Shown here: positions 160-64,000 of the stretch, in pieces
How positions within the stretch are numbered: position 1 is the stretch's first letter
Layout of the letters: each line of letters opens with the position of its first letter
Assembly: GCA_035221665.1 (NCBI GenBank)
Contig: CM069159.1
Coordinates: 35,154,001 to 35,218,000, forward strand
DNA from: Okamejei kenojei
Taxonomy: Eukaryota
Length of the DNA stretch: 64,000 nt
Direction: 5' to 3'
Notes under the pieces: generated by a model
Databases searched by the model: none
Told to the model about the DNA's origin: nothing
Seen by the model: only the letters and a program-made list of their open reading frames with translations
Program-made: the position numbers and the translations under genes

Positions 160-730
160 CTTGTTTAATCTTCCCTTTCTGCTCCCCTTTATCCCACCAT
201 CCCTCACCCTTTGGTTTCTCCACTTTACACACCCCTTCCTCAGTAATGAACCATTCTACATTTCATTACCATTATCTGCTTTGATCTGTTGTTTTCACAC
301 CTTACCCTTCCATATCTCTAGACTCCCTCTCCCCTGATTCTCAGTCTGAAGAACGGTCTCCACCTGAAATGTCGCCTATTCCATCTCTCCAGAGATGCAG
401 CCTGACCCGCAGACGAGGAAACACTTTTTCTCACAGAGGGTTGTGAGTCTGTGGAATTCTCTGCCTCAGAGGGCGGTGGAGGCCGGTTCTCTGGATGCTT
501 TTAAGAGAGAGCTAGATAGGGTTCTTAAAAATAGTGCGGAGTCAGGGGTTGTGGGGAGAAGGCAGGAACGGGGCACTGATTGGGGATGATCAGCCATGAT
601 CACATTGAATGGCGGTGCTGGCTCGAAGGGCCAAATGGCCTACTCCTGCACCTATTATCTATTGTCTTACTTTAGCATGTTGTGTCTATCTTTAGTGTAT
701 AACGAGCACCTGCAGTTCCTTCCTACACAC
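160..730 (+). mobile_element. Penelope-like element (PLE) 3' end with degenerate hammerhead core (346-373), split by a CR1 insertion at 411-667
   Basis: Shares 3' UTR sequence (ccattctac..tgctttgatctg..ctagactccctctcccctga..cagtctgaaga) with the PLE at 24141-24525. The tail resumes after 667 (tactttagcatgttgtgtctatc..gcagttccttcc). Confidence 0.7.
411..667 (+). mobile_element. CR1 LINE, 5'-truncated 3' end
   Basis: Encodes RKHFFSQRVVSLWNSLPQRAVEA (CR1 ORF2 C-terminus), then 3' UTR and ctattgt-type tail. Confidence 0.9.
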
Positions 731-1233
731 TTCATTAATTTGGGAGGCTCCTGCCAATGCACCTTGATTAGTTCTTGCTGCTAATTGGAGGAGAGTATAA
801 TGGGTGGGATTGTGAGAATGATACACTGTGAACTGCCTTTCTGATGATTGGTCAACTTTGTGAGAGAGACGGCACTTTCCTCCCACTTTCCCGTATCGAA
901 GGATATTTGCATTTCCACAAAATCAGATGGCAGGGCACGCATTAAAGATTTAGAGTGCAGAAGAAGGAAGGTCAACCCATTAAACCCACTTCCAGGCTCT
1001 TTCTCCAGTGCCAGCCTTTCCCCTGCAGGTTTTCATTCAATTTTCGGGTATGCTTCCACCACTTTTGCCAGTAATGCATTCCAGATCTGAATGTCTCACT
1101 CTGTAAATATTTTACTTTTTCTCTCCTCTGGTTCTTTTGTCATTTTCCCTGAAGCTGCCCCGTGAGATAACGAAGCCCCCTACCATTTTATTTTGCATTG
1201 TAACAGTTACTGCTTATCATAAAGTATATCGTT

Positions 1234-1333
1234 TAAGAAGGAACTGCAGATGCTGGAAAATCGAAGGTAGACAAAAATGCTGGAGAAACTGCTGAGTTCA
1301 CCCGCTGAGTTTCTCCAGCATTTTTGTCTACCT
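1234..1333. mobile_element. Short inverted (fold-back) PLE-tail insertion
   Basis: Arms gaaggtagacaaaaatgctggagaaact / agtttctccagcatttttgtctaccttc; 17-bp TSD tcataaagtatatcgtt at 1217-1233 and 1334-1350. Confidence 0.85.
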
Positions 1334-2149
1334 TCATAAAGTATATCGTTAGTTGTAAAGCACTTTGGTGCTTCATTAAGGTAACTTGATGAGCATTGTA
1401 TAATTCTCTTTTTATTCCTTTAAAACACCTTCTTACTTTCTGAAGAACAGACTGAGGTAAGACCCATAACGTCGCCTTCCATGTTCTCCAGAGATGCTAC
1501 CTGACCTGCTTAGTTACCTCAGCACTAGAGTCATAGAATGATACAATGTGGAAACAGGCCCAACTTGCCCACACTGGCCAACATGTCCCACTACACCACT
1601 CCCACCTGCCTGCGTTTGGTCTATATCCCTCCAAACCTCTCCTATCCATGCACCAATTTTGAAACTTGGTACAATTCCACATTAAATTTTCCTTCTCAAA
1701 TAATCCCACATTCTCTCATCTCAGTACAAACAAACATACCCACTTTCACTGAATATCAAATATCTAAATGCTTAATTATTTCTCAGATTTGATCCCAGTT
1801 GCTCATTTCTAGATTTGGGAGAGCTTCTTCATTGTTTTAACTGCTACCAAGCAAAGAGGACTGTGTTGGAGTTTCCTGGTAAAGATCCCGGTAAAGTCCA
1901 TAGTCCAATCAGACTCTCATTAACATTGCATAGCCTTGCAAATTTTGACTGTTAATTCATCAAATGATTGTGACTTCATGAGAGAAAGCCAATCCAACAA
2001 GTTTTTTTCTCGTGTTCCTCCAGTTCTCCCTCTCAGAACTAATCGGAATCAAAATATCTCCCCGCCTTCTGTTGATATTATGAACATTTCTCCAGCAGAT
2101 GTTCACTGTCTGATGTCCATAAAGTCCTAATTGGATTTTTAAGTTGATT

Positions 2150-2530
2150 ATTATCCCATTGTCGGAGTGTAGGCATCATTGATAAGGCAGGCATAAAGAT
2201 GGTGATGAACCATCTTCTTAAACTGCTGGAGTCCATGCAGTGTAAATGCCCCTACAGCTCAGTTTCAGAAACGGATCTAGAGTTTTGGCCCAGCTATGGT
2301 GAGACATTGCCCATGTCAGAATGGAATATGGCATGGAGGCAGCTTTGGAGATGCACCTGCTCTACTTGTCCTTCACTGGGAGATGCTGTTGAAAGAGCTT
2401 TGGAGTGTTCTTGCATTGCATCTTGCAGTGATATGCACTGCAGCTATGCTGCACGCGTGGTGGGAGAAATGTATCTTACAGTGACGGAACTGGGACTATA
2501 TTTCTTGTCCAGTTTGCTGAGATGTGTCCT
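2150..2530 (-). mobile_element. Old CR1-clade LINE 3' fragment
   Basis: Degenerate similarity to the relics at 14990-15360 (+) and ~45470-45720 (-); recognised by eye. Confidence 0.45.
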
Positions 2531-2539
2531 TTATTAGCC

Positions 2540-5060: not shown

Positions 5061-5071
5061 TTAGGAATTTT

Positions 5072-5203
5072 AGGTCTGAAAAAGGGTCCAGACCTGAAAC
5101 ATCACCCATTCGTTCTCTCCAGAGATGCTGCCTGTCCCGCTGAGTTACTCCAGCGTTTTGAATCTATCTTCGGTGTAAACCAACAATTGCAGATCCTTCC
5201 TAC
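5072..5203 (+). mobile_element. PLE tail insertion with degenerate hammerhead core (5076-5103)
   Basis: ctgaaaaagggtccagacctgaaacatc followed by the family tail ccagagatgctgcctgtcccgctgagttactccagc. Confidence 0.8.
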
Positions 5204-6159
5204 CCATTCAGTTTTAATTCCCTCTAAAGTTTGTAGCAAGACACGGTTCTCCCAGATACGTACGGAACAAAGGCCCCCTTTGATCAACCTAAAACTCCAT
5301 ATTAACTCCTCACCCGTTCATAAATAGTCTTAAAGGGACTCAGATATAAACCTACTCCAGGTTCTCCATTTTTGAATTGGCTATAGTTTAATTTATAACA
5401 TGCAAGTGGTCCACATTCTGACATGCAATTATAATTAATATATCTTTGTATGAAATGCTGAGCTGAGTGAACCGGAAGGACTTACGGAGTTCCCCACAAA
5501 TGGGTCAAAAACCAGGCACATAAATTTCAGATAATTAGTTGGATTAGAGAGATCATGAGGAAAGAGTCGTTTTCATCCAGAAGGTGAGGATGGCTTTTTG
5601 GAGAGGATTTGCAACAAGGTTTCATAAAGCTGAAAACTTATTTGTAGAGCTGGTGTTTTCTTCAGAGGCAAAAGGATATAATACAACTTTAAAATGCTGC
5701 AAGACTGAAATGGATGTTAATTGGCTTTTCAATTTTTAATTGCCTCATTTGGAGGAGTATGTTGATTACAGGATAATGCAGGTCAGAAAAACCAGGAGTT
5801 AAAACCCCACCCTGACATTTGTGCATTTTAATTCACTTTTAAATAAAAGTAACGAGATTTAATTCAAATCTGATATCTAATGGTTATCCACAGTGCTATG
5901 CAATAGCCACGTAAGACTCAGCTTATTCACCCTGGTGTCCTATTTGGAAGGACATGTGGATCTATACAGGGTATGGACCTCTACATGAGGTCCCACATTG
6001 CTATTGCCCCAAAATTGCTCTCTGCAAAAGCACCACTGGGTTACAAACTGATAGGTGACTAACCAACATCTACAAGTTCCATGCATGTCCATGGATCAGT
6101 TAGCTTTTGCCAGCCTTCACAGCCAACAAACTTTGCCACCATCAGTGTAGATAATGGGT

Positions 6160-6353
6160 GGGAAGGAACTGCAGATGCTGGTTTACACCGAAGATGGACA
6201 CAAAATGCTGGAGTGAAGGAACGGGTGACGTTTCGAGTTGAGACCCTTCTTCAGACTTCGTCCTCGAAGGATCTCGACCCGAAACCTCACCCATTCCTTC
6301 TTTCCAGAGATGCTGCCTGTCCCACTGAATTACTCCAGCTTTTTGTGACTATC
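6160..6353. mobile_element. Inverted pair of PLE tails joined at the hammerhead motif
   Basis: Minus copy ends gacgtttcgagttgagacccttcttcagac; plus copy gaaggatctcgacccgaaacctcaccc; degenerate TSD gtagata(t)..atgggt. Confidence 0.8.
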
Positions 6354-7379
6354 TGCGTAGATTACATGGGTCAGCCTCACAGTTAAACATACAGAGAAAG
6401 GAAAGTGGGTAAACTGGCATCCATCTTGTCCCTTCAGGTTCCAGCCAGATGATAACATCGTTCCAGCTCTATTTTGAGCTAATCCACTGTAATCTACAAT
6501 AGAATTTATTTTGTACTGATTGACTGCTTATACATGCTGGTGTTTTGAATCTAGCTGAAACAGCTGGGAAAGGGCAAGGTCTGTTGTGTGCAGTGACGTT
6601 CATGTAAGCAACTCCTATCTGAACTAAAGACATGGAATGCAATCTTGGAACGATGGAATCCATTGTTCAATGTGTCGTACTGCTCATTCCCTACTGTTCC
6701 AAGTTGGTCAAACGTCAAGAAAATGGACAGATTAATACTGACCCTTTCTACATTATCAAATCACTCACACAGGTAATGCCAGGTAGCTCTGCACTTGTTC
6801 TGAGACTTTATTTTATACATAAGATAAGAAGCTATGTACATTGATACCCAATATATGGTACAATAATAGTGAATCTTGCATATCATATTTTAATCCTACT
6901 GTACAGAATGGAATAATACAATTTGTCACTGTATAAAAATGTGTAGTATGCATTATCTAGTGTTAAATGACCATTTTGTGTTACAGCAATATGATTCAAA
7001 GGGATCACATGGAATTGGAATCAGTTCGTAGGTGCATAGGTTCTAGGTGTTGAATCAGGTCAATCGGCCCATCATGTTTTCTCCGCCATTCAATTATGAC
7101 TGATCTATCTTTCCCTCTCAATCCCCAATCCCCATAACCCCGACCCCTCACCAATCAAGAACCCATCAATCTCTTCCTTAAAAATATCCATTGACTTGGC
7201 CTTCTGTTTGGCAAGTCCATTAAATCATTGGTGGAAGAGATGTGAAGGGCTGAATGGTGTCCATTTCTATGATGTAAAATCAGGCTGTGAACACATCAGG
7301 CAAGCATTGATGTTGTCATTAATGTGTGATGTTGTCGACAGCTTAGGAGGAAGACCAGAGGAGAAGAGGGTTTGAGGAA

Positions 7380-7900: not shown

Positions 7901-8093
7901 CTGGTTGATCATTGGGTCATGCATATTATTCTGCATCAGGTCATCTCACCAGAAACTTGAGTGCATAATCCAGGCTACTGTCTTGTGCAGTGCTGAGAAA
8001 ACCGTACACCGTCAGAGGTACAGTCCTCTAGATGTCTTGTTGAGCCTACTCTCTCTTTTAAATCATATGAAAGTTGGATAGAGCTCTAGGGGA

Positions 8094-8540
8094 CGATCAG
8101 CCATGATCACAATGAATGGCGGTGCTGGCTCGAAGAGCCGAATGGCCTCCTCCTGCACCTATTTTCTATATCTATGTCTATAAGGGGTTGGACAGGCTAG
8201 ATGCAGGAAGATTGTTCCCGATATAGGGGAACTCCAGAACAAGGGGTCACAGTTTAAGGATAAGGGGGAAGTCTTTTAGGACCGAGATGAGAAGATCTTT
8301 TTTCACACAGAGAGTGGTGAGTCTGTGGAATTCTCTGCCACAGAAGGTAGTTGAGGCCAGTTCATTGGCTATATTTAAGAGGGAGTTAGATGTGGCCCTT
8401 GTGGCTAAAGGGATCAGGGGGTATGGAGAGAAGGCAGGTACAGGATACTGAGTTGGATGATCAGCCATGATCATATTGAATGGTGGTGCAGGCTCGCAGG
8501 GCCAAATGGCCAACTCCTGCACCTATTTTCTATGATTCTA
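8094..8540 (+). mobile_element. CR1 LINE 3' end (8181-8540) preceded by an extra CR1 3' tail (8094-8180)
   Basis: ORF2 end ..FRTEMRRSFFTQRVVSLWNSLPQKVVEA.., 3' UTR, tail cctattttctatg. Confidence 0.9.
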
Positions 8541-8609
8541 TAAAGATTCCATGGCACCATTTTGTGCATGGGAGGGGGGGGGGGGGGGGAAATTCTGTGT
8601 GGTATCTTG

Positions 8610-9800: not shown

Positions 9801-10868
9801 GGCGACCTGCTTGCTGCCTCTCCCAGAATAAGGTCACCTTCCATCATTGCTACGGCTTACCCTCTTCAGAAAAGCAATAGTTGCTGACTGCCCTTCCCTC
9901 ACCATCCGATCCCCACCTTGGTCCCAGGGAGTAGGGCTGCCCAAAGCTGGTTTCCTACATTAGATCTCTTCCAGAAAACTTTGAAAGAATCTTCCACCAC
10001 CAGCCTGGTGTTGCTTGGCATTGACAGCTCACAGTCTCCCCGTGGGCTGTGGGCAGACTAGTGGGTTATGGTGTATGGTTTCTTAGACAACGGAGACAGA
10101 TTCAACCTGAACAATTGGAAGCCAGTCACTCAGTCACTCCCATCGCTCGGCATATGCAATGACACTAAACTCACGGGGCCTCCTGCCTTGGCCCAGACTC
10201 ATAGGGACTCTCTTCCACACTATCCTGGTCACCCAGGTTTAGAGGTCATGTGAGAACGACAGAGGGCCTAAGAAGTTGAAGATGGGTTCTGATGGTCACA
10301 AGAAAATAGGGACAGGAGCAGACCTGGCTTTTCAAACCTGTTGTGTTGATCAATGCCATCATGGCAGATCTCCCGCAGGCCTCAATTTCTTTGCTGCGCT
10401 GGTTTCATATATCCCCCAGATACAAACTCACTGCCCAATGCATTACATGCAATTGGATACAAGATAAATAGGCAGAACGGGAAATTGCTTAATAGGTATG
10501 ATAAAGAGCTTTTGTGGAATTAAATTGTGACCCATTTCTGGACTGTAAGTTCTATGTCATTACATGAAGACAGGTGACCTGGGCAACGTACCAGAGGAAT
10601 GTCAACAGACATAAAAAATACATCCCCTCAGGGGTAAACATCTACCTGAAAGAGGAAGAATTTCATTAGAAAATAAATGAAACAACTCTTCCTATTTTGC
10701 AGTTCTGATTTTCCTATCTATTTCTTCAGACACTCAAACTTGTGCTGTGCTGATTCTTCTCAGAATGCCAAGGAATAAGCCAAACCATCTACAAAAATAT
10801 GGAAATGTGCTGAGTGGTAGCGATGGTGAGTCTTATTTTATTTTGCAAGAAAACAGCAGGTATTTTCA

Positions 10869-11150
10869 ATAGACAATAGGTGCAGGAGTAGGCCATTCGG
10901 CCCTTCGATTCAGCACCGCCATTCAATGTGATCATGGCTGATCATCCCCAATCAGTACCCCGTTCCTGCCTTCTCCCCGTATCCCCTGACTCCGCTATTT
11001 TTAAGAGCCCTAACTAGCTCTCTCTTAGAAGCATCCAGAGAACCTGCCTCCGCCGCCCTCTGAGGCAGAGAATTCCACAGACTCACCACTCTGTGTGAGA
11101 AAAAGTGTTTCCTCGTCTCCGTTCTAAATGGCTTACTCCTTATTCTTACT
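10869..11150 (-). mobile_element. CR1 LINE 3' end (young)
   Basis: ORF 10952..11245(-) includes RIRSKPFRTETRKHFFSHRVVSLWNSLPQRA; tail aatagacaatagg on +. Confidence 0.9.
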
Positions 11151-13799: not shown

Positions 13800-14329
13800 C
13801 CTAGCTCATGCACCATTCCCTCACATGCAGCACTAACAAGATGACTGAAGTGGATTCATCCAGAAAATGCAGAACCCCCCCACCCCCCACACCTCCAGAA
13901 ATCATTTGACTGGTGGTTGGGTCATAAAAAGGGATCATGATAGGAGCAGAATTAGGCCATTCAGCCCATCAAAACAACTCCGCCATTCAATCATGGCTAT
14001 TCTATCTCTCCCAACCTCATTTCCCCATAACTTCTGACACCCATATGGGATAGAATGTTTGTATCTCTAACATTTGCAAATTTCCCAAACGTATTCCAAG
14101 ACTATTAAAAGCTAAGCATCTTGTTAAAAATTTAAAGATCCATGTAAAAAAATCAAAATACCTAAAAAAAATTCAAATATTATTTGGTAAAAAACATAAT
14201 TAATTTAACTAAATAAATTTGAAAATGTCAATTATTACAAACATGCCTACCTCCCCATGGTCATTGTTGAAAACAATGATATCCTGTACTTAAAGCCCTT
14301 TATGCAGAGTGAAATATCCCATACCCTGA

Positions 14330-14513
14330 AGATGTTGGAGTAACTCAGCGGGACAGGCAGCATCCATGGAGTTGGATCTCCAGAAATGCCTATAGCTATG
14401 ACTTGGAGGAAGCGGAAGGAGTCGAAGGAAAAGTTGTTGAGGGTGAGGATCAGCTCCGCTAGGCGGAGTAGAGTGTTAGTAGAGGGTAATTGGATGGTTC
14501 TGTGGTCGAGAAA
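14330..14513 (-). mobile_element. Penelope reverse transcriptase fragment (14388-14513) abutting a PLE tail piece
   Basis: FLDHRTIQLPSTNTLLRLAELILTLNNFSFDSFRFLQVIAIG resembles the PLE RT region preceding the G(V/T)AMG motif; adjacent to the ggagtaactcagcgggacaggcagcatc tail. Confidence 0.8.
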
Positions 14514-17605: not shown

Positions 17606-18354
17606 TGACTTTTTTTTCTCTGTACTTGCCACATTAAGACGTTTTACCTGGCTGGTTCCTTTGCCGCTAAATTGCCCTTCTGCCAACCAATATTTGTTGG
17701 TATTTGACAATTCAAATTAGCAGTTTTTATCAATGTTGGTCAAATCATAGGTGTTGGATAGTAGGGAATGGGGGGGGTGTTGACATTTACCGATCTCCAC
17801 ATTCCGACAGACAAATTAAATGTTGGATTCAATTGAACTTAGTTCCATTCAGCCCAACAATCTGGTGGGACTCAGTGGGTCAGGCAGCATCCATGGAGGG
17901 AAATGTACAACAGTGTTTCATGCCGAAACCCTTCTTTACTTTGAGGAGGGCTAACTTTAACCCAACATTTAACTCATCAACATTAACCACCATTGACTTC
18001 AATGATACAAAACATGAGGCACCCCGTACAACTGAAGTTACTATTCTGGCAAATGTTTAGCATTAGAAACTGAAGAGGAATCTCTCCCTTAATATTAAGC
18101 AGTGTTAACAATGCGGTAAAGGCCAACGCACCCACCAGGTCGGTCCTGCTTGACTGTAATCTGGTCTAGCCTTGCTGCAGCTGGGAGGAACGGAATTTGG
18201 AAGAGAATCAATTGATCTCATGTCTTTGTGAGCAGTGGGCTACAGGCCCGGGGTGAATCAATCCCAGTGCAGGGGATATATTGCAAATCAGAATGTGGAG
18301 TGATGCAAATCAACCGAGAGGATTGTCGGCATCTTCAGAGATAATAAACACTTG

Positions 18355-18517
18355 TGTGTTGGGAGGAACTGCAGATGCTGGTTTACACCGAAGATAGACA
18401 CAAAATGCTGGTCAAGCTTCTTCAGTCTGAAGAAGGGTCTCGACCCAAAACGCCACCCATTCCTTCTCTCCAGAGACGCTGCCTGTCCCGCTGAGTTACT
18501 CCAGCACGTTGTGTCTA
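18355..18517. mobile_element. Inverted PLE-tail pair with hammerhead-like core (18427-18454)
   Basis: Junction cttcttcagtctgaagaag; family tails on both sides. Confidence 0.8.
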
Positions 18518-18750
18518 TGAGAATAAATGCTTCACTGTTTTTGAAACTTCTTCAAATTTAAACTACAGTTGGTAATATTAATACAAAGCCAAATGCACAG
18601 AACAAGATCTCACACATTCTATTATTGTGACCACTCCTCGTCCTTCATTATCTTCTACATTCCTCACAGCGCTCCTCATTCCCTTTGGAAATTCTGAATG
18701 ATTTATCTCAGCTATCATGCACAGTGAGTGAATGCACCTTGCATTTTAAA

Positions 18751-18842
18751 TCTGAAGAAGGGTTTCGACCCAAAACGTTGCCTATTTCCTTCGCTCCATA
18801 GATGCTGCCGCACCCGCTGAGTTTCTCCAGCATTTTTGTCTA
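18751..18842 (+). mobile_element. PLE tail insertion starting at the hammerhead core
   Basis: tctgaagaagggtttcgacccaaaacgtt..; TSD accttgca(t/a)tttaaa on both sides. Confidence 0.85.
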
Positions 18843-19600
18843 CCTTGCAATTTAAAGTTGGTTAAAGATGTGGAGACACCTTCCACGTGAGTCACCAGGG
18901 ACTGGCGGCAGACAGAGTCCAGGGTTAAACCATGGTGATGGGCTTCCAGCTCCCGACCTTTCTTCCTTCCTTGTTATCCCCTACTTTGACCTCGGAGGTG
19001 ACTCTTTCACCCAGGCAGTGCCAAGCTTGATGTTTTAAAGTGCAGCCTTATCTTCCACTGAATGCTCGTGTGGTGAAAGGACATCACTGAGAAAACAGAT
19101 CAGTGTAAAGCAATGGATGTAAAAATACAAATCTTGAAATGCAGGAAACGGAGCAGACTTTGCAGTTGTAATGCAGTGTGATTAACCTTTAGACCATAAG
19201 CACAAAATGGAGGTCAAAAGTTTAAAACCTCAGGAAAGATAAATATTTTTAGAACAATTCTCTTACTTTAGTCATCTGTGTCTAAGTGCCACCTCTCACT
19301 TCCGGTGTCTTGAATCAATTCATCTTTCTCACTTTCATATTTTTTTTTCATTCTTTGTTTTGACTTCCTTTTTCTCTCTTTTTGCCTTTTCCCCTTTCTC
19401 TCTCCCTTTCTTTTCGAGGTCGGATTCATTTTTTTAATGTAAAGGGAACTGTTAGATATGTAATATCCACGGGCAAACAGTTGCATCACAGTCACAGGGC
19501 ACGGAAACAGGCCCTTTGGCCCAACATTAATGCTGACCAAGATTCCTCACCCAAACTAATCCCATTTGCCTGCATACCCCCATATCCCTCGAAACATTTC

Positions 19601-20063
19601 AATAGACAATAGGTGCAGGAATAGGCCATTTGGCCCTTCGAGTCAGCACCGCCATTCAATGTGATCATGGCTGATCATCCCCAATCAGTACCCCGTTCCT
19701 GCCTTCTCCCCATATCCCCTGACTCTACTATTTTTAAGAGCCCTATCTAGTTCTCTCTTGAAAGCATCCAGAGAACCTGGCCTCCACCGCCCTCTGACAC
19801 AGAGAAGTCCACAGACTCACCACTCTCTGTGAGAAAAAGTGTTTAATCGTCTCCGTTCTAAATGGCTTACTCCTTATTCTTAAACTGTGGCCCCTGGTTC
19901 TGGACTCCCCCAACATCGGGAACATGTTTCCTGCCTGTAGTGTGTCCAAGCCCTTAACAATCTTATATTTTTCAATTAGATATCCTCTCATCCTTCTAAA
20001 CTCCAGAGTGTACAAGCCCAGCTGCTCCATTCACTCAGCATAAGACAGTCCCGCCATCCGGGA
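19601..20063 (-). mobile_element. Young CR1 3' fragment nested in an older CR1 tail (~19490-20145)
   Basis: ORF 19743..20030(-) LGLYTLEFRRMRGYLIEKYKIVKGLD..SRTRGHSLRI..HFFSQRVVSLW. Confidence 0.9.
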
Positions 20064-23650: not shown

Positions 23651-23836
23651 TAGACAAAAGTGCTGGAGAAACTCAGCGGGTGCAGCAGCATCAATGGAGC
23701 GAAGGAAATAGGCAACGTTTCGGGCCGAAATGTTGCCTATTTCCTTCACTCCATAGATGCTGCTGCACCCGCTGAGTTTCTCCAGCACTTTTGTCTACCT
23801 TCGATTTTCCAGCATCTGCAGTTCCTTCTTAAACAC
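23651..23836. mobile_element. Near-perfect palindromic PLE-tail insertion
   Basis: ~60-bp arms centred on tttcgggccgaaa (~23708-23720); TSD tggtag(a/t)ctgattg at 23637-23650 and 23837-23850. Confidence 0.9.
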
Positions 23837-24140
23837 TGGTAGTCTGATTGGTTGCATTGCCATCTCTACGAGGGACAGAGGTTTTGACTGTCTTGTCTAA
23901 TTTTAAAGTGATCTAACTGCAAATAGATTTTTTGAGCATTAGTCAGTGGAACTTTGGGTTCCTAGTTCAGTGGTGACTCAGGATTCCTGTGTGTGGTCAG
24001 CCCATTTGTTAAATACTCTGTGAGCAATGATCTCCAGGGGAGTGTCTCCCTCCACAAGTCATATTCTCTAACAACAGGGAACCGGACCATTCAATCCAAC
24101 AAGTCGACATTGGCACGAGCCCTCCCCAACTTGTCCCCAA

Positions 24141-24525
24141 TGCAAATTGGAGGAACAGCACTTCATATTTCACTCGGGCAGCCTACAACCCAGCGGTATG
24201 AATATTGATTACTCTAACTTAAAGTAACCCTTGCTTTCCCTCTTTCTCCATCCTTCCCCCACCCTAGTTCTCCGACTAGTTTTACTGTCCTTCTGATTAA
24301 TGTTGCTGATTGTATGCCTTGTCATCTTCCCCTCCAATGAACCATTCTAAATTTTCTTAGCATCATCTGCTTTGATCTGCTTTTTTCACACTTTACCATT
24401 CCATATCACTAGACTCCCTCTCCCCTGATTGTCAGTCTGGTGAAGGACCTCAACCCAAAATGTCACCTATTCCTTCTCTCCAGAGATGCTGCCTGACCTG
24501 CTGAGTTACGCCAACATTTTGTGTT
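24141..24525 (+). mobile_element. Penelope element 3' end: ORF C-terminus (24141-24227), 3' UTR and degenerate hammerhead (24437-24464)
   Basis: CKLEEQHFIFHSGSLQPSGMNIDYSNLK* matches the end of the PLE GIY-YIG endonuclease (E..I..L.S..P.G.N). Confidence 0.85.
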
Positions 24526-25015
24526 TGGCTTCATCTCATCCTGTTAGCTTACTTCTATTGCTTCCCCCCTCATGTTTGGCTGCTATCTCTTTAGCTCCAG
24601 CATACAGGATTGTTGCAGTACAGGGAAAGGCCTTGTATCTGTACTACAATGCTTGTATTTCACCCAAACCTCCCCTTGTGGTAGGTTGACATAATAATCA
24701 ATGGGTGAATATATCCCCCTTGAACATTTATTGGATTAATGGCTATTTTATATGTATGAACACACATTTTGAAAAGGAAGCTGCAACGAACACAATAATT
24801 CTGTGTGTTTATGGTTGAGGTAGAGGGGGAGATGCAGGTTGGCGTTCAAACCAAGAGCCCAGGACCTGCACACTGGGTTTGTTTATGAGGAGCAGAAGCA
24901 GAAATCCAGCAGTGATCTTGTCTCCTCCCTTCCTTATTCATTGAGTTCACAACCAAGTTAAATATTATTCTGAAGAGGTTCACGCGTTGAATCAACACTC
25001 AGTATAATATTTAAA

Positions 25016-25620: not shown

Positions 25621-26079
25621 AGAAAGATGGCGAAAGCTTTTTTACACAATTCCATATTTTGAAGTTTATCTATTCATTGGTATCATGCAATGTACATGTG
25701 ACGCGGGGACCACAGGGTCTGGCTGATGCTTGTTACTGTATCCAGCTCCATATTCATGACAAGATCCCAAAAAGAGCTCTGTACCTCCATCTGACATCCA
25801 GCCACTTGGGAATTTGGTTGGAGCTAAAATTATAATTTAAGAGCAGTACTATTTCTTTAGCTGAATTAAGCTGGAGCTGTTTCAATTCACTCAAAAACAT
25901 TGCATTTCCTCCAGGATTGCCTTGAGGTTTCAGGGCCTTGATAATTAACCTTAAGCCCTATCACATGATCGGAAATTTTTTTTAGGCTGTTATAAATCTA
26001 ATAGGTTTGATAATTTTCTTTTCACACATATATTTCTTGGTCATACGTATTTCTAAAGAAACTGCAAGTCTAAAGAACT

Positions 26080-26265
26080 GATAGACCCAAAATGCTGGAG
26101 GAGCTCAGTGGGACAGGCAGCATCTCTGGAGGGAAAGGAATGGGTAACATTTTGGGTCGAGACCATTCTTCAGGCCTGAAGACCTTCTTCAGTCTGAAGA
26201 AGGGTCTCGACCCGAAACATCACCCATTCCGTCTCTCCAGAGATGCTGCCTGTCCCGCTGAGTTA
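26080..26265. mobile_element. Inverted PLE-tail pair with intact hammerhead core (26194-26221)
   Basis: CTGAAGA AGGGTCTCGACCC GAAACATC; mirror copy at ~26146-26173. Confidence 0.85.
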
Positions 26266-39400: not shown

Positions 39401-39860
39401 AAGGAATAGGTGACATTTCGTGTCGTGACCCTTCTTCAGACTGATGTGTGTTGTTATTTCAAAGCGTACTGGTTTCTCCTGATATGTGGCATCTCACCAT
39501 CATTCCAAGAGAACTGGGCAGTGAGCATCAGCAACCTGTGGCAGAGGACAAAAGATCAATAATATTTCCCGGTTACTCGATAGTGGGCATGAATGGGAGT
39601 TGGGATATTTTTTATTATGCCCTTTGGCTCAGTGATACTGAAATGAATGTCTAAATTCCCAAACTCCTGATAATCTCAGAAATCAAATTTGGCCCAAGGT
39701 GTGGATCAGCACAGAGCATTCATTCATTGTCCATGCCTGAAAATGACCTCTCCTCTCCTGGAGAAGCCATTTTGCTGCCTGTTAGAAAATCTTTTAAAAA
39801 GCAAAAAGAAGTTGAATGGAATTTGTTGCATTATTCCATTATCATTTCCATTATCTTTCA

Positions 39861-39986
39861 AGATAGACACAAAATGCTGGAGTGGCTCAGCGGGACAGGC
39901 AGCAGCTCTGGATAGAAGAAATGGGCGACATTTCGGGTCGAGACCCTTCTTCAGACTGACGTTTCGGGTCGAGCCCCTTCTTCAGA
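39861..39986 (-). mobile_element. PLE tail insertion with two tandem hammerhead cores
   Basis: Cores at 39958-39985 and 39927-39954 (31-nt period); TSD ccattatc(t/a)ttca at 39848-39860 and 39987-39999. Confidence 0.85.
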
Positions 39987-40036
39987 CCATTATCATTCAG
40001 CCCATTTATGGAGGCTGATTTTAATTTCTGTCTGTT

Positions 40037-43379: not shown

Positions 43380-44665
43380 AAGTCACACATGGAATATAAA
43401 ACTGTACACATTGGATCTATGTGTCTCCCATTTGGTCTATGATATCTGTGCCAAACACTATGCCTAATTAAACTAATACCTTCTGCCTGCTCGTGATCTA
43501 TACCCCTTCATTCCCTGCATATTCAAGTGCTGGCCCCTTAAAACACCACTATCGTATCTGCTTCCACCCCCACCCTTGGCAAAGTGTTCCAAGCATCACC
43601 ATCCACCAAACAAAACATTTGCCCCCGCACATCTGTAAATGTCCCCCCCCCCCCCCCCCTGACTTTAAAACGATGCCCTCGAGCCTTTGACATTTTCACC
43701 CTGGGGAAAGGACTCTGAATGTCTATGTCTCTCTTACTTTTATTATTCTTCTATCAGGTCTCCCCTCATCCTCCAATGCTCCAGAGAAAACAGTCCAAAT
43801 TTGTCCAACCTCGATATATAGTTAATACCCTCTAATCCCGGTAAATAACAACTGCACCCTCTCCAATACCTCCACATCCTTTCTGTAACGGGATGACCAG
43901 AATTGCATACAATGCTCCATAGGTTTTATGAAAATCTAATGTGACTTCCTAACACTTCTAATCAATGTCCTGAATGATGAAACCAAGTATACATATGTTT
44001 AAGAAAGACCCGCAGATGCTGGAAAAATCGAAGGTAGACAAAAAATGCTGGAGAAACTCAGCGGGTGAGGCAGCATCTATGGAGCGAAGGAAATAGGTGA
44101 CGTTTCGTGTCGAGACCCTGAAGGAATAGGTGACGTCACCTATTCCTTCGCTCCACAGTTGCTGCCTCACCCGCTGAGTTTCTCCAGCATTTTTTGTCTA
44201 CCTTCCAACTACACATATCCCTTCTTTACCATTCTACCTACTTGTGTTGCTACATTTGGGGAGCTATAAGCTTGGACTCCAAGATCCCTTTGAAGGTCAA
44301 AGCTATTGAGGCTCGTTATTAACTGTCTACTTTCCCCCGGCAGTTCACCTCCCAAATTGCAATACCTCACACTTGCTCCGATTAAACTCCACCTGCCGTT
44401 CCTCCATCCACATCAGTCACTGACCTATATGTACAAACTTACTAACCGGCCATTTACATTTTTGTCTAAGTCATTTATAAATAAATCACAAACAACAGAT
44501 ATCCCAGTACTGATCTTGGCAGAACACCACTGGTCACAAACCTCCAACCAGAGTAACACCCTTTCACCACAATCCTCTGTCTTCAATGTGCTAGCCAATT
44601 GTGATACTAAACTGCCAGCTCAATGTGTTTCCCGAACATCTTAGTCTTCTGGATCAGCCTCCCAT
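43380..44665 (-). mobile_element. CR1 fragment interrupted by a PLE insertion
   Basis: Antisense CR1 motifs (tctcccctcatcctccaatgctccagagaaaacag; gaccagaattgcatacaatgctcca; ccagtactgatcttggcagaacaccact). Confidence 0.75.
43996..44205. mobile_element. Inverted PLE-tail pair nested in CR1
   Basis: Internal palindrome gaaggaataggtgacgtcacctattccttc; TSD ccaa(g/c)ta(t/c)acatat at 43983-43995 and 44206-44218. Confidence 0.85.
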
Positions 44666-45080: not shown

Positions 45081-45217
45081 GTCTGAACAAGGGTCTGGAT
45101 CTCAACCCGAATCGTTCACCCATACCTTCTCTCTCGAGATGCTGCCTGTCCCGCTGAGCTACTCCAGCTTTTTGTGTCCATCTTCAGTTTGAACCAGCAT
45201 CTGCAGTTCCTTCCTAC
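45081..45217 (+). mobile_element. PLE tail insertion
   Basis: Starts at a degenerate core ctgaacaagggt..; TSD acatttaaatgt at 45069-45080 and 45218-45229. Confidence 0.8.
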
Positions 45218-46593: not shown

Positions 46594-46751
46594 GGTAGCC
46601 AAAAGTGCTGGAGAAACTCAGCGGGTGCAGCAGTATCCATGGAACGAAGGAAATAGGCAACAGGCAAAGGGTTTCAGCCCGAAACGTTACCTATTTCCTT
46701 CGCTCCATAGATGCTGCTGCACCCGCTGAGTTTCTCCAGCACTTTTGTCTA
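46594..46751. mobile_element. Palindromic PLE-tail insertion
   Basis: Same architecture as 23651-23836, turning at gtttcagcccgaaac; flanking caaatgct repeats. Confidence 0.85.
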
Positions 46752-49855: not shown

Positions 49856-49988
49856 NNNNNNNNNNNNNNNNNNNNNNNNNNNNNNNNNNNNNNNNNNNNN
49901 NNNNNNNNNNNNNNNNNNNNNNNNNNNNNNNNNNNNNNNNNNNNNNNNNNNNNNNNNNNNNNNNNNNNNNNNNNNNNNNNNNNNNNNN
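49856..49988. other. Assembly gap (N run)
   Basis: Run of n. Confidence 1.
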
Positions 49989-52817: not shown

Positions 52818-52948
52818 NNNNNNNNNNNNNNNNNNNNNNNNNNNNNNNNNNNNNNNNNNNNNNNNNNNNNNNNNNNNNNNNNNNNNNNNNNNNNNNNNNN
52901 NNNNNNNNNNNNNNNNNNNNNNNNNNNNNNNNNNNNNNNNNNNNNNNN
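52818..52948. other. Assembly gap (N run)
   Basis: Run of n. Confidence 1.
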
Positions 52949-53861: not shown

Positions 53862-53944
53862 GCCAGCTGCCACTAACCCGTAGATCCGAACTTGTGTTTC
53901 AAGTATCTCCCAAGCTCGTGTCTATAGGTCTGTGTCTACATGGT
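53862..53944 (+). ncRNA. mir100: microRNA miR-100 precursor (miR-99/100 family); mature 5p 53875-53896, star 53911-53932
   Basis: Exact mature AACCCGTAGATCCGAACTTGTG; complementary arm CAAGCTCGTGTCTATAGGTCTG; flanks (tgccac../..tgtgtct) as in vertebrate pre-mir-100. Confidence 0.97.
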
Positions 53945-55160
53945 AAAGAACCAACCAGCCATCGACATTAGATATTGTAATGGAGCTCTCCTGCAGGGTC
54001 GAGAGGTTTAGGGTGGTGGTCACCATTAGCTCTACGAGAGCATGTTGAAGCTGTAGGTGTGGAAGAAATGGGTTGCAACAACAAATCTTTGATGATGATC
54101 GTTAAAATAAAACGACATAAGAGTTGACAGGTCATTTTGCCTAACCGGTTTAGTGCTCCAGACAAGCCTCCCCAAATCTGAAGCAAGTTGGGCCAACTTT
54201 AGATCATGTGCTTTTTGCAGCAGGGTGGGGCGAGGATTATGGAAGTCCCAATCCATGAGTCAGTAATGATGTGGACCTCCCAGCTGGCAACTCCCAGCCA
54301 AGTTTAACCATTTCACCCAGTCATACTCTCATGCCTCCGGTAAGAGTATCCCAAAAAGCTTAAGGTTAATGACTCTGTAATTCCCTTGATAGAGTCTAAT
54401 GAATCAGTGTGAAATGTGGTTTCTATTTGGGATTAGCCATGAATGGGGACATGTGAGGGACGCGATTTAGGATAGCAGTTTACTCAGAAGCAAAACGACT
54501 GTGAAAACGACTTGTGCAGATTCACTGGGGCAGCCACACCTTGGCCCATAACAGGTTCCGAGAGCTGGCTGCACAATAACCCCCACTGAACATCACGGGG
54601 GGCTACGAGGCTTCCATTAGGTGGAGGTGGGATGGGTGAAAAGCACTTGGGTGATTAACATGGAGACTTCTGATCATTAATGGCTACGTTTGTCAATGGC
54701 TATTTTTCTTAAAATTTGAACTGAATTTGTTGAGTACCAAAGATAGACGCAGAAAGCTGGAACCTTCTTCAGACTGGTCTATGCACGTGGGGATGTATGT
54801 GTTAGTTTGGCGAGTGTGACACGTGTGTGAGTTACGTGTGGTTTGCCTGCGTTGATGAGGGTGTGTGTGTGTGTGTGTGTGTATGTGTTAGTAAGCCATA
54901 TGTGTTGCTGGTCGCTGCATGTAACAATATCATTGTCTGTGGTTTTCTCCATATATCTTTCCCAGGGTATATGGGTGTGACGAGGCCCTGCGTTTAGAAT
55001 GTGTTGGTGTGTAGGGTAAGTCCAGACATTGGACCAACAACTTCCCCTTGCTTATTCATCGCGCACCACCCTTATCTATCCCTGACCTTCTCTCACTATT
55101 TCCTTCCCCTCAACCCAACTGCTTAAAGCTTCTGATGCAGTAGTTGATGAGGCCAATGAC

Positions 55161-55254
55161 TGTGTGCACCCAGGCTGAGGTAGTAGGTTGTATAGTTTAG
55201 AATTATACCAAGGGAGATAACTGTACAACCTCCTAGCTTTCCCTGGGGCATGCA
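55161..55254 (+). ncRNA. let-7a: microRNA let-7a precursor (let-7a-2 type); mature 5p 55176-55197, star 55221-55242
   Basis: Exact mature TGAGGTAGTAGGTTGTATAGTT; loop TAGAATTATACCAAGGGAGATAA; star CTGTACAACCTCCTAGCTTTCC; basal stem tgtgtgcacccagg/ccctggggcatgca. Confidence 0.98.
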
Positions 55255-56157: not shown

Positions 56158-56572
56158 CATAGAGACATACAGCATGGAAATAGACCCTTTGCTACTATTT
56201 ACGCTTGCCGACCAACATGCTCCATTAGTCCCACCAGCCTGCATTTCGCCCATATATCTCTATACCTTTCCTATCAATATACCTGTCCAAATATTGTTTA
56301 AATGTTGCTATAGTACTTGCCTCAACTACCTCCTCTGGCTACTCATTCCATATACCCACCACCCTCTGTGTGAAGAAAGTTGCACCTCAGGTTCCTATTA
56401 AATCTTCCCCTTTCACCTTAAACCTAAGTTTTAATTTCCCTACTCTGGGCAAAATACTCTGTGCATTCACCCTATCTATTCCCCTCGTGGTCTTATACAC
56501 CTCTATAGGATCTCCCCTCATCCTCCTGCGCTCCAGGGAATATAGTCCGAACCTGCCCAACCTTTCCTTATA
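56158..56572 (-). mobile_element. CR1 3' fragment
   Basis: Antisense of the same CR1 subfamily as 35970-36405. Confidence 0.85.
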
Positions 56573-59179
56573 TCATAACAAATATATTGTCCAGTGATGC
56601 ATATATCCCAGTAACAAATAGAAATCTGCTTGAATCCATGCTGATAAAATAGTCCCAGTAAGTGAAGCTTCATGGATCTGCAACTAATGAAACATGTGGA
56701 AGGCAGTACTAAATCAATTTCCTTCTCATTACTTCTCCATCTAAATTCCACTCAACTCTTGATAACACAAAACCACATAGTTAGATATTAAGCTTCAGCT
56801 GTACAATTGCAATGGTGAGAATAATTAACCATCATTGATGAATGTATGCAATCTGTCCTTGGCCTCTCCAAAGTTAGTACTTGCCAGGTTGGTAATATTT
56901 GGCCCTGTATCAGCTCCTCATTTCTTCAGGTCAATGCATGGAAATGGATGACACCTCTCTACCACTGTTTAATAATGCACTCTTCAAAATTATATTTTAA
57001 TTTAAATTCCAAGTTCAAAGTTTTCCCTCATTCAGTGTTAAAGCACTGATGGTGTGGGTGACCTGAACAATCTATTCCATTAATGGCCAAACCAGGATAT
57101 TGATGAAAGCAAACTTCAGACTTCACTTCACATGCAACATCATTACAATGAAATGACAGCGACATCCTTCTGTAATGAGGTTTTGGAGTGTCTGCAACGA
57201 TTGCTAGGCGAGACTCTGGTGCAATGGGTGGTGCATCAGTCTGATCGACATTTGTCAGTTATTGCGTCTATTCAAGGCTGAGATGCTCAGTCGTTGAGTA
57301 TATTCAAGCGTATGAAAGATACAATTTTTGGGCACTGAAAGAAATCAAACAAAATGGAAATAGAACAGGAAAATCATGTTGTTGGAAGATCAGCTCTGAT
57401 GTTGTTGGTTAGTGGACCAGATGCAAGGGTTGGGGGCCAATTTTGCTTCCATTTCCAGTTACATATTATGCAAAGTGTATGCTTTTCCTCTCCGTTGTCA
57501 TGTATAGAGGGGAGGATGTTGCGGACCACATAATCAGCTGCTAATTTGCTATTGTTCATCATCCACCCCTATTCAGAGTTTTTCAACGACTAGGTCCATT
57601 CCATGTAAAGGAATATGAGCTTAAATTGGCACAGAATAACTAAAGAGCAAACGGTTATGGTACAATGTTTAAGATGGAACTGCAGGTGCTGGTTTAAATG
57701 TGAGGATAGACACAAAAAGCTGGTGTAACTCAGCAGGACAATGGTACAATATTTGACTTCACTTAATTGGATCGGGTTGATAAGAGGTTAGATTGGTAAT
57801 AATGGTTATAAGGTGATAAACAACTCGGAAAGGCATCACAGTGCCAGGATTGTTCTGAGAGCAAGGTTCCCCGTAGGACAAGAATCCAAAGTGGAAGATG
57901 AAAGAATGAAAAGACATTGGTAGATGAGCAGACTATTTCACCTTTGTGAGCTTGTTCTGCCATTAACTGAGATCATGACTCAACTCTGAATTAACTCCAC
58001 TGTATGAAAAGATAGAAAAGTGTTTAGTAGTCCTCTTTCACATTTCCTGAAGGACACAAATTAAAAAAGCTCTCCGCTTATGTTAGACATCCCCTTTGTG
58101 ATATCCATTGAATGTTCGCAGATGGTAATTGAACCAGAAAATCCACATTTAGTGAAATCTGTTCAATTGTATGTTGCAAGTCAGGAAATGGCTGGTGCTT
58201 AACGACGTCTCCGCTAGAAATACCTACTCCTAATAATCCATCCATACGAAATACTCGCGCTGCTGAGATTGTTGGCGGGGCATTTGGATGAGCAACGAAG
58301 CCAATTTCAGATAGTAAACTCCACACAATCTATGGAAGGCATCCTAGGAAGTCTTATTTGAGTCGTTTGATGGAAGTCTTTTTTGAGTCATTTAGGTTTT
58401 CATAATGCTGCAATTATAGTATTACCAGCATTTTTTGTTCGATTTCAGATTTCCAGTATTTGTAGTTTCTGTTATGTTTGTGTTGATCAAAGGTAACGAG
58501 AAAAAGGAAAGTATAGATCCTTCATACCTTCAGAATATCTCAAAGTACTTCACAACTAATTACATGTTTATCAAATGGAGCAATTATTGTTTCATAAGAT
58601 AACAGGCCATCTGGACACAGAAAGATCCTATGAAATGAAATAAAGGTTGGATTTTTTAAAAAGTGTGATACCATCATTCGAGGATGTTATGAAATGAGAG
58701 GATCGTTCATCCATTTCTATGGATCTTCCTTCACCCAATACACTCATTCATTCGTGGAGCAGCTTTGGTTTAATAAAGCATCTTATGCTGCAGCACTGGA
58801 ACAAAGTCAGGCAAAAAGCCACAGCGAGTCGGGGGAAATGACTCAATGATCAGTCTAAAGGCGGTGGTTTTAAGGGGAGAATGAGCGTCCCCTGAGATCT
58901 TGTGGGGAAATCCCAGGGATAGTATTATGGTCAACTGAGGCAAATCCATGGCTGATGTAGGGAAGGGAGCAGGGATGCAGCAGTGACCAGAACTAAAGGA
59001 ACACAGAGAAAAATAATTTTTTCTGCTTAACAAAACTGAATTTGCAGAAGGAATTAGTTTTTATTTACAGAGTTGCCCTTGAGTAATTTTAAGGTGAGGA
59101 ATGATTTAGGCATCCACTTGCATCGGACATCGGACCAGAAATATATGGGCATTATTTGGAGGGAGTACATTCTTCAAGC

Positions 59180-61519: not shown

Positions 61520-61870
61520 TACATGTTTGAAGATATGATTCAGACTGACATACCACCATGTAAGGAGTGCGTGCTCCCTGTCAATAGTGCCAGCTGAACG
61601 ATCAGAACGTTAAGCTGAGGCACAGTCTGTCTTCTCGGGTGGATGTGAAATATCCCATAGCATTCTTTTGAAGTAAAGTAGGGAGCTCTGCGCCGATCGA
61701 TACCCTTTTACCAATATCCCTTTGCCATTCTCTGCATGCTGCCAGTGTGAGCTTGCTGAGTATAGTTTATCCATTATATCTCCTCCATTATAATGGGAGT
61801 TAACACTTAATAACACTTTACTGGCTTTAAAGCACTTTGGGATGTCTGAGGTCATGGAGATGTTGTCGAG
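61520..61870 (+). mobile_element. Deu-domain SINE relic
   Basis: acgttaagctgaggc..tctcgggtggatgtgaaatatcccatagc..aagcactttgggatgtctgaggtcatg. Confidence 0.65.
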
Positions 61871-62394
61871 ATCAGGTCTGTCATGGTGAGAAGTTCTTCC
61901 TGGATGATAGTGTGTCACCAGGCCACCTGCAAGCTGACGCTTTTTTTTTATTTCCACCAACAGTCTTCCTCTGAATGATTCACCAAAGATGCTACAGTAA
62001 TAGGAACAGTTTCGTTCCAAATCTCCAGCCAAGAAATTTGATTCAGGACAAATCAGTGAGTAAGAAATCATTTCACAAGTAGGATCGGGTTACCTGGGCT
62101 TACAGGCTCGTTTGGTCACTGCTCCATAAGCATTCCAGCTCAAGCTTGGTTTTGGGATCAGCAGACAAAATCGAGGAATACAGGGGGAAGAAATTGCAGG
62201 ATTTTCACTTAAGACCATTTTTAACGCAAGTTTAGTACTTTGCAAAACCTTGACCCAGAGTCATTTCCTCCTCGAATCTTAAAGGTTTGAAGTGGACTGA
62301 GCTTTGATCTAACCTGGGAGTGTTGCGTGCTTTTACCAAGAACAAAAATATGGGTTCACGCACATTTTAGCAAAAAAACAACTGAACTGTTTAA

Positions 62395-62566
62395 GGTAGA
62401 CAAAAATGCAAGGGTGGGGGGAGCACCACCCTCATATCAGTCTGAAGAAGGGTTTCGACCCGAAACGTTCCCTATTTCCGTTGCTCCATAGATGCTGCCT
62501 CACCCGCTGAGTTTCTCCAGCATTTTTGTCTACCTTCCATTTTCCAGCATCTGCAGTTCCTTCTTG
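62395..62566 (+). mobile_element. PLE tail insertion with intact hammerhead core (62442-62469)
   Basis: CTGAAGA AGGGTTTCGACCC GAAACGTT; 18-bp TSD aacaactgaactgtttaa at 62377-62394 and 62567-62584. Confidence 0.88.
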
Positions 62567-64000
62567 AACAACTGAACTGTTTAACTCTGTTTTACTTTCA
62601 ATAATGACACATTTAATTTGACACACCATTTATTCTCCATCCCTCATAGAGTCGTACAGTGTGGAAATGGGCCCTTCAACCCAACTTGCCCACACCGGCC
62701 AACATGTCCCAACTACACTAGTCCCAGTTGCCTGCATTTGGTCCATATCCCCCCAAAACTGTCCTATCCACCATGGCCCCAAGAAAAGGAAAAACATGAA
62801 ACAGGTTGGTGGGAAGGGAATCAAACATAGGTCTGACTGTGCTCGGATGATGGGTTTTCTTCCCTGGGCAATATTAGCGAACATGTTTGTTTTTGCAATA
62901 ATGTCGTGAAGGTATTGTCATCACAGATGGATTTAAATTGGAATCCAATTTTAAAATGTCATAGTGAAACTTGAAGTCCCTGCATTATTAGTCTAGGTGA
63001 TAATATTATGAATCTAAAAATTGAATCACTATCTATGCCTTCATATTAAAACTGCATTTTAAAATGTCTTTCTGCATCTCTATCCTTTTCCAGTCTCTAG
63101 GCTTTTTAAATGCGCTTGATTGTCATCTGGCTTCTACAGTTCTTCTTTGACTCATGCTTTTCTCTCTCACTCTTATCTGGGTTCCTCTTTACTGATGATG
63201 CAGAATGGATGTTTCCACTAAAACCGATGTTCCAAGGCACGGGAGATCTGTCCACACATGCCAGACTAGTGTAGCCCAAGGTGCGGGACTATGCACTGTG
63301 TGACGCATTGAAGCTTGATGAATCCATTGTAATGGCTCCATGAGGATAGGCTTAAGGATTAGAACATTTCCATCATTGAAAACCAAAGGACAGGAGCTTA
63401 TGTAAGAACCTCTTTGACGTATTACTAGTGAATTGTATGTGAAAGGACTGCTCTAAACACAGTGATTAACATTTATATGGGTTGCATATTTTTGTTGTAT
63501 TTTTACCCGCAAAATGTATACAATTTGCAACATACTCTACATTCATATGTAAACATTCACAATACAAGACGTATTCTATTTCCTTATAAGATTTACAGTT
63601 TATCATTGGGACATTCATTTTTCTTTCACCTACATTCCATGTGTGTACGTCTGAGAGGTTCTTGAACATGGGCTTGCACAGCTCCTCAGTTTTCAATGAC
63701 AGAAAAGTGCTAAGCCTTAAACTTTTCATTGTGAATCCTTTGCAAAGACTGTACCCAAACTTCAGTGCGTCCCTCGTCACATTGGACTAGACTTCTCCGC
63801 AACATTTGGCCGCAGACAGCTGCCTGCCTTGAAACACCACTAGGTTTCAGACAGTAAGATGCACCATTTACCAAGTTGATTAACTTTCTTGCAGCTATTG
63901 AACCTACTTGAGTCCGTGTCCGCAGGAACAGTCTATAGAGCACAAACTCTCACGTGATGGAGCTGGGTGGGATGAACCTTGACAAAGACCACTAAATCCC

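Follow-up and report, generated by a model that had tools for sequence, protein, structure and literature searches.

The 64-kb window analysed here, the whole stretch of 64,000 nucleotides from contig CM069159.1 of Okamejei kenojei, is crowded with short repeats that combine a hammerhead-ribozyme motif with a downstream tail. We consider it very probable that these are short insertions bounded by target-site duplications (TSDs), each a copy of the hammerhead-plus-tail end of a Penelope-like element (PLE), made by the element's own reverse transcriptase (RT)-endonuclease through target-primed reverse transcription of uncleaved RNA. This reading follows from the homology of one copy to the end of a PLE open reading frame (ORF), from the TSDs, from two discrete 3′ ends, from the inverted arms and from a cluster of 5′ ends just in front of the motif. 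Since one copy still holds the end of a PLE protein gene, the repeats are, judging by their sequence, most likely stubs of a known Penelope-type retrotransposon and not a separate ribozyme replicon.

The initial annotation had described many short insertions sharing one tail, and this was confirmed. A profile built from six copies and run over the window at E ≤ 1 gave 38 matches, as against one (E 0.98) in the reversed window. Two weak matches (36226–36267 and 58425–58469, E about 0.55) were left out, and the remaining 36 were merged arm-wise into 25 loci, each consisting of the hammerhead motif and/or the 100-nt downstream tail. They occupy 3586 bp, or 5.6% of the window, at a density of one locus per 2.6 kb. 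Copies measure 70–208 bp between TSDs, except for two longer ones at 245–729, which contains another repeat, and at 24136–24524. Diagnostic columns separate at least four subfamilies, where two had been annotated. In sequencing run X3 (all run data are assembled contigs), the summed contig depth was about 21 in unique flanks, 0.9–2.1 million at the ORF end and 29–38 million in the tail; such depth is not copy number and varies with likeness to the one diverged copy at 24136–24524, so it indicates no more than roughly that copies consisting of the tail alone predominate. Pattern scans of viral and metagenome contigs returned no copies.

The link to a protein gene comes from the longest copy (24136–24524, + strand), which is repeat-derived throughout and runs from a PLE ORF end through a pyrimidine-rich untranslated region (UTR) and a mutated hammerhead (24437) to a short 3′ end. 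Its 27 codons plus stop (24144–24227, +) correspond to the C-terminus of a PLE GIY-YIG endonuclease: the 24144–24224 peptide is 63–70% identical to the C-termini of the ray proteins P0004 and P0005, and the ray and shark proteins found in a region search with P0001 have C-termini 57–74% identical to it. A HMMER library search with the ORF-end peptide yielded three matches among 1.84 billion representatives, and the named closest protein matches belong to a skate, two rays and a shark, in keeping with a skate-like cartilaginous host. The homologous ray and shark proteins carry YIDD-type RT, DKG, CX4CxxC and GIY-YIG motifs. On these homologues, the Pfam GIY-YIG model gave E-values of 5e-4 and 2e-3 for P0004/P0005 and of 0.047 for a third protein, none reaching the curated cut-off, and did not match P0007. 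In the literature, a CX2-5CxxC motif between RT and endonuclease (EN) defines the Neptune/Nematis clades (PMC8557442); by this definition, the CX4CxxC linker of P0004/P0005, encoded outside the window, points to an element of that type.

Other searches were less productive. Among five PLE-derived tblastn queries against the window, the 24144 fragment was the only convincing match; with five queries only, fragments of ORFs from more distantly related PLEs may have escaped. Pfam assigned no family to window peptides of 30 and 51 residues, and a word-indexed protein search with 40 residues of the window peptide gave no match. P0005 found one weak metagenomic locus (L001), which has no hammerhead motif. 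A match to P0002 was discarded as repetitive and unrelated. P0001 is the NCBI gene model for skate neuromedin-U receptor 1, which ends in 70 residues of PLE endonuclease (residues 428–499), probably through a mis-joined terminal exon.

The colinearity of ORF end, UTR and hammerhead is seen beyond this single locus. The UTR at 24336–24436 is 89% identical over 100 nt to that of the copy at 245–729 (+), which comprises 100 nt of UTR, a hammerhead at 346 and a long 3′ end. Contigs of other genomic copies bridge both the ORF end–UTR and the UTR–hammerhead junctions (for example records 5, 6 and 8 of run X16, which is probably DNA, and records 30 and 32 of run X9). Four sequencing runs over 23960–24620 show single-copy depth outside 24136–24534 and repeat-level depth inside. 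Contigs of organisms B and C that are orthologous at this locus continue into the repeat, so the insertion is common to organisms A, B and C. The copy at 245–729 is itself split at about 414–666 by a second abundant repeat class, which must therefore have inserted there later. This class, presumably CR1-type long interspersed element (LINE) or HE1-HER1 short interspersed element (SINE) ends of cartilaginous fishes, also occurs at 8089–8541, 10864–11148, 19597–19956, 26320–26571, 35973–36407, 56228–56570 and elsewhere.

The anatomy of the insertions is also that of a PLE, in line with the Penelope-derived origin first proposed. When a TSD is called as a flanking direct repeat scoring at least 8, 13 of the 25 loci have one, as against 5 of 200 mismatched flank pairs; the TSDs are 9–18 bp long and rich in A+T (68% versus 57%). 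We number positions from the C of CUGA as +1, with the predicted hammerhead cut after +28; arm ends were entered by hand, to about ±3 nt. Across 30 arms, 16 end at +90 to +98 and 14 at +128 to +132, with none between, and the two ends thus define an optional tail of about 35 nt. Not counted here are 1438, 14329, 17850 and 54730, the plus arm at 26188, which a later insertion has cut, and the first of the tandem units described below; the minus arm at 26047 is ambiguous. At 10 of the 25 loci, the insert consists of two head-to-head inverted arms that overlap in sequence. The annotation of short shared-tail copies thus stands, and it had mentioned neither the two-arm inserts nor the TSDs.

The two-arm inserts, to which no single strand applies, tend to pair unlike ends: both ends are intact in nine of them, and eight of these combine a long arm with a short one (binomial p = 0.02). 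Ends at +128/+95 are found at 1234–1333, a subfamily B insert without hammerhead and with a 17-bp TSD (1217–1233/1334–1350), and at 29417–29553, where the TSD is 15 bp and the plus arm starts from the predicted cut site (+28 to +30). The insert at 23651–23836 ends at +91/+130, is centred in stem II and has a 14-bp TSD; that at 43997–44204 ends at +129/+95, folds back on the ACGT palindrome and has a 14-bp TSD with two mismatches. Long and short ends are also combined at 29060–29208 and at 62395–62566, where a short inverted arm (end +94) precedes a complete B copy (hammerhead 62442, end +129) within an 18-bp TSD. Two short ends occur at 46594–46749 (TSD 14 bp, two mismatches). The fold-back centre at 18355–18518 is the T just before CUGA, while 26050–26265 has two fold-backs at the hammerhead 5′ edge and a plus arm (hammerhead 26194) cut by a later insertion. 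The insert at 6153–6354 has a weak TSD. Overall, palindrome centres of at least 5 bp are present at five of the ten junction regions and fall at the hammerhead 5′ edge, in stem II or at ACGT.

By analogy with the anole PLE protein (PMC11167929), these features can be arranged into one mechanism. The PLE protein would nick both target strands 9–18 bp apart, and cDNA synthesis would begin at one of two internal sites, at +95 or +130. Extension of one target strand would leave a single-arm insert, whereas extension of both, one from each start site, would produce two cDNAs that microhomology or palindromes join head to head. As part of the pseudo-LTR (pLTR, pseudo-long terminal repeat), the hammerhead would be carried along without setting the boundary of the copies, and would have been lost from most genomic copies by CpG decay.

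What limits the copies on the other side is a narrow cluster of 5′ ends. Two copies are too diverged for this count: 1438–1525 (+), which has a degenerate hammerhead, and 17850–17937 (−), an older relative. Of the 13 other single-arm copies, 9 have their start at −4 to −1; those of the remaining four lie at −299, −101, +41 and +58. If truncation were uniform over 100 nt, such a cluster would arise with a probability of about 1e-7, the choice of window allowed for. Among single-arm copies bounded by TSDs, six of seven start in this interval. They include a B copy at 18751–18841 (+; start exactly −1, short 3′ end, TSD of 15 bp at 18736–18750/18842–18856) and an A copy at 45081–45217 (+; start exactly −2, long 3′ end, TSD 12 bp), both of which begin there without any microhomology. 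Further A copies start at −2 (5074–5205, +; complete, long 3′ end, mutated core) and at −3 with microhomology upstream (27398–27497, +; short 3′ end, TSD 11 bp). Complete copies with long 3′ ends also start at −1 (38329–38454, +; no clear TSD) and, in subfamily B, at −4 (39315–39443, −; TSD 9 bp). The single copy of a further subfamily at 30773–30862 (−; TSD 9 bp) has a 5′ junction formed by microhomology at −2 to +3, and an internally deleted copy at 54730–54776 (−) starts at −4. The other short pieces are a tail-only copy from +58 with a long 3′ end (57671–57740, −; TSD 14 bp) and a tail fragment at 14329–14371 (−).

The contigs extend this observation to other genomic copies. Among loose ends in three DNA runs (814–1827 contigs per row), the majority letters follow the element to AGT or TCAGT, and then agreement is lost. 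The site, TCAGTCT, is initiator-like, forms a quasi-palindrome and is preceded by a pyrimidine tract, which makes it also resemble a splice acceptor. The initiator consensus is YYANWYY. We hypothesize that the cluster marks the 5′ end of the RNA, in which case the majority of inserts would represent the initial 100–135 nt of the transcript, copied as run-off cDNAs primed on its first pLTR. This is the least certain step of the mechanism, and we give it about an even chance.

The same sequence features allow another reading, in which the cluster is a hot spot and not an RNA end: the quasi-palindrome TCAGTCTGA, CAG as a 3′ splice site, or some structure bordering the hammerhead would stop the RT or promote joining. 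The fold-backs at 18353 and 26047 are centred on the cluster, a pyrimidine tract and CAG do precede it, and in Drosophila virilis Penelope an intron ends at helix I (PMC4209133). However, single-arm copies without an inverted partner start at the same place, two of them (18751 and 45081) without microhomology, and the copies have no upstream exon sequence in common, as those from spliced templates would; an origin from spliced templates was rejected for this reason. We regard a hot spot as somewhat unlikely, and as the less probable of the two explanations of the cluster.

Several observations weigh against the reading we favour, some bearing on its tie to a PLE gene and others on the proposed RNA start. 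The ORF link concerns 1 of 25 loci, 27 residues and one subfamily, and no upstream ORF was seen in the window for subfamily B or for the commonest A type. Only half of the two-arm junction regions have the palindromic centre described above. Different UTRs among the subfamilies would likewise blur the majority at the loose ends. YYANWYY occurs once per 78 nt in the window, so that the initiator match is weak alone. The 62394 copy extends beyond CUGA on the upstream side by about 17 nt, and the starts of two copies, at −4, precede the supposed first base of the RNA by one base. The layout also differs from that of D. virilis Penelope, in which transcription from an internal promoter is described as starting some 120 nt ahead of the hammerhead; an intron of 75 nt follows 46 nt after this start and extends to helix I (PMC2377424; PMC4209133). 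At 62395–62566, the only B copy extending upstream of the cluster, the stretch between the short inverted arm and the hammerhead (62395–62436) is a small hairpin whose arms are rich in purines and pyrimidines, and it appears to be subfamily B upstream sequence that has folded back.

Some of these points would suit a self-propagating, non-autonomous mini-element, similar to a SINE, whose copies of 100–135 nt contain an internal promoter and both RT start sites and would be transcribed and re-copied in trans by the PLE protein. The sharp common 5′ boundary and the high density of short copies fit such a unit. Subfamily B is almost without upstream extension in the window; as neither it nor the commonest A type shows an ORF upstream, both might stem from a short non-autonomous master. 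There are precedents: D. virilis Penelope has an internal promoter (PMC2377424), and pLTR sequences are enough for mobilisation in trans in Adineta (PMC3846280). On the other hand, this tail and hammerhead also occur colinear with an element that bears an ORF, run-off from full-length mRNA would yield an identical product with no need for a separate master, and there is no tRNA-like head: the Rfam scan of the window found no tRNA, 5S or 7SL match, and the TSDs directly abut the hammerhead, leaving no head derived from RNA polymerase III transcripts. A mini-element of this kind seems to us rather unlikely, but it is compatible with insertion by the PLE protein and does not compete with it.

The motif itself is, as first annotated, a minimal type-I hammerhead with a palindromic ACGU stem III. 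It consists of CUGAAGA followed by one additional A, a stem II of 4 bp capped by CUCG or UUCG, then GAAA and the palindrome ACGU, with either C or U at position 17. A minimal-hammerhead descriptor matched seven times in the window, versus a mean of 0.04 (maximum 1) in 100 Markov controls. The invariant core CUGANGA/GAAA/UH is present in the majority sequence of both main subfamilies, as are the extra base between 9 and 10.1, the G10.1–C11.1 pair and the palindromic 15.2–16.2 pair. Rfam offered no confirmation, with no hammerhead family among its 21 window matches at E ≤ 5.

Of the 16 copies that span the core, seven are formally intact and none is perfect; the losses are mostly CpG transitions, at G12 and at 15.2–16.2. 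The best-preserved motif is in the minus arm of 6153–6354 (6224–6254, −), which was absent from the list of cleanest cores drawn up at first, and every core on that list has a defect: 26194 has lost the 15.2–16.2 pair, 27401 has both CpG changes, 62442 has no stem I pair, 39927–39954 has U–G at 15.2–16.2 and 39958–39985 has a 3-bp stem II. Where the copy at 24437 departs from the core, 58–91% of the summed contig depth from other genomic copies (run X3) has the core letter. Element-encoded stem I is 0–2 bp, reaching 3–4 bp in two copies only by means of flanking bases, and stem II has a predicted probability of at most 0.05 in six folded inserts; the helix I of 4–5 bp and stable helix II of minimal type-I hammerheads were not found. 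With seven of 16 cores intact, stem I of at most 2 bp and stem II predicted to be unfolded, self-cleavage is doubtful. The folds also predict a pairing outside the core: the conserved GAUGCUG strand would pair with a second CAGCAU in four tail-bearing copies (0.72–1.0) and with the first CAGCAU in a tail-less copy; such helices might be what fixes the two start sites.

It had further been expected that core positions would be more conserved between subfamilies than the flanking tail. The direction agrees, with 0 of 11 invariant core, 2 of 28 hammerhead and 21 of 100 tail positions differing between the A and B majorities, but with p = 0.12 (Fisher) and 0.10 this is suggestive only. Within subfamilies, conservation is dominated by CpG decay.

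These properties bear on the proposal of a non-coding, retrozyme-like mobile unit, in which the hammerhead would cut and circularise a short RNA that is then reinserted as monomers or tandem repeats. The core is indeed present and identical between the subfamily majorities, animal retrozymes are reported as pLTR-derived (bioRxiv 10.64898/2026.07.22.740005), and one tandem hammerhead dimer has its junction at the cut site. That dimer, a 31-nt duplication (39927–39987), lies in a single-orientation insert with a short 3′ end and a 13-bp TSD (39861–39986, −); its first unit covers −1 to +28 and its second starts from −3. The first unit fits a 5′ cleavage product, but the junction is accounted for just as well by a TCA microhomology. 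Two junctions fall at the cut site (39958 and 29488), each inside 2–3 nt of microhomology, with no excess over chance. No tandem arrays of the unit exist in the window, where this dimer is the only case among 29 tandem-repeat rows. The copies start upstream of the core and end at two PLE start sites and not at GUC, they have TSDs and inverted arms, and one of them is colinear with a PLE ORF end. To these points are added the minimal hammerhead with its poor stems and the use of uncleaved RNA by the anole PLE (PMC11167929). A retrozyme origin is thus very improbable, and the proposal was not upheld.

Returning to insertion by the PLE protein, we tentatively suggest that the stubs may together be a record of its mechanism, although all of the following being true at once is a good deal less likely than insertion itself. 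Transcription would start at TCAGTCT, directly before the hammerhead; internal initiation by the RT on the first pLTR of the mRNA would yield a "strong-stop-like" run-off cDNA of 100–135 nt, whose insertion would greatly outnumber that of the full element; the protein, as a dimer, would prime the two target strands from different start sites and so create the long-plus-short inverted pairs; and the unit at 39958–39986 would be a captured 5′ self-cleavage product (−3 to +28), a fossil of cleavage in vivo.

Other features of the window stand apart from the family. Precursors of the mir-10 family (53868–53938, +) and of let-7 (55170–55246, +), both above Rfam gathering scores, are presumably the miR-100/let-7a-2 cluster by their mature sequences, and the stubs upstream of them may lie in introns of their host transcript. 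Three locally paired repeats (13527–13799/14684–14932, 44887–44985/45743–45841 and 28066–28120/28285–28339) were found only once elsewhere in the window by self-comparison; two of the three are inverted, by their printed ends. Runs of N at 49856–49988 and 52818–52948 mark assembly gaps, away from the PLE stubs.

Hammerhead-bearing PLE ends, tails and inverted arms have already been published, and the discovery is modest. Its value lies in scale: at one locus per 2.6 kb and with clean TSDs, a genome of the skate/ray type would offer a very large sample of precisely bounded insertion products, which could address where the PLE RNA starts, how the pLTR is regenerated, whether opposite target strands are extended from different start sites and whether cleavage by the hammerhead ever happens in vivo. 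A practical corollary is that, when cartilaginous fishes are scanned for ribozyme or retrozyme motifs, most of the matches will be PLE stubs in decay. Our literature searches, at the level of listings and abstract openings, returned no publication on this repeat family or on its 5′ cluster; Repbase or Dfam entries, or the supplements of the 2026 preprint, in which one chondrichthyan species is included, may already describe it.

Among known systems, the non-LTR retrozymes (PMC7229834; bioRxiv 10.64898/2026.07.22.740005; review PMC6765202), described as tandem repeats of 150–450 bp with canonical hammerheads and circular RNAs, are similar in their type-I hammerhead, their relation to pLTRs and their short non-coding unit. 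They differ in that the family reported here has no tandem arrays, no canonical hammerhead and almost no helix I or loop 1 for loop 1–loop 2 contacts, while its ends are not set by the ribozyme and it has TSDs and a PLE tail. With the minimal type-I hammerheads that metazoan PLEs carry (Cervera and de la Pena 2014, PMC4209133), the family has in common the extra nucleotide at 9/10.1, G10.1–C11.1, the palindromic 15.2–16.2 pair and mostly single dispersed motifs. Such dispersed hammerheads are attributed there to truncated PLEs, with weak dimer activity; the sections seen of that paper do not mention cartilaginous fishes. Unlike the Schistosoma motifs, with a helix I of 4–5 bp, stem I is 2 bp here, like D. 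virilis helix I, and stem II is 4 bp.

PAc, the Poseidon element of Anolis carolinensis (Frangieh et al. 2024, PMC11167929), provides the mechanistic model. Its tail equals the distance between two internal RT start sites, both target strands are cut and extended, targets are AT-rich, and the RNA template is uncleaved, with a protein-assisted hammerhead that lies upstream of the start sites and is dispensable for insertion; the skate family agrees in its two tail-defining start sites, AT-rich targets, extension of both strands and hammerhead position. PAc belongs to another clade, since the ray proteins have the linker motif, and the skate motif has no ATG at stem II and reads CUGAAGA, not CUGAUGA; short run-off inserts and long-plus-short inverted pairs are undescribed in the main text on PAc. 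Finally, the skate family is like the canonical EN+ PLEs of Neptune/Nematis type (Craig et al. 2021, PMC8557442; Arkhipova et al. 2013, PMC3846280) in its pLTR hammerhead, its 30–40 nt optional tail at one end, its inverted 5′-truncated copies, its junction palindromes and TSDs, and, in the homologous proteins, a C-terminal GIY-YIG domain and a CX2-5CxxC linker. It departs from them in TSD length, mostly 11–18 bp as compared with 8–10 bp in Adineta (PMC3846280), and in the extreme excess of 100–135 nt stubs with a sharp 5′ boundary at the hammerhead edge.

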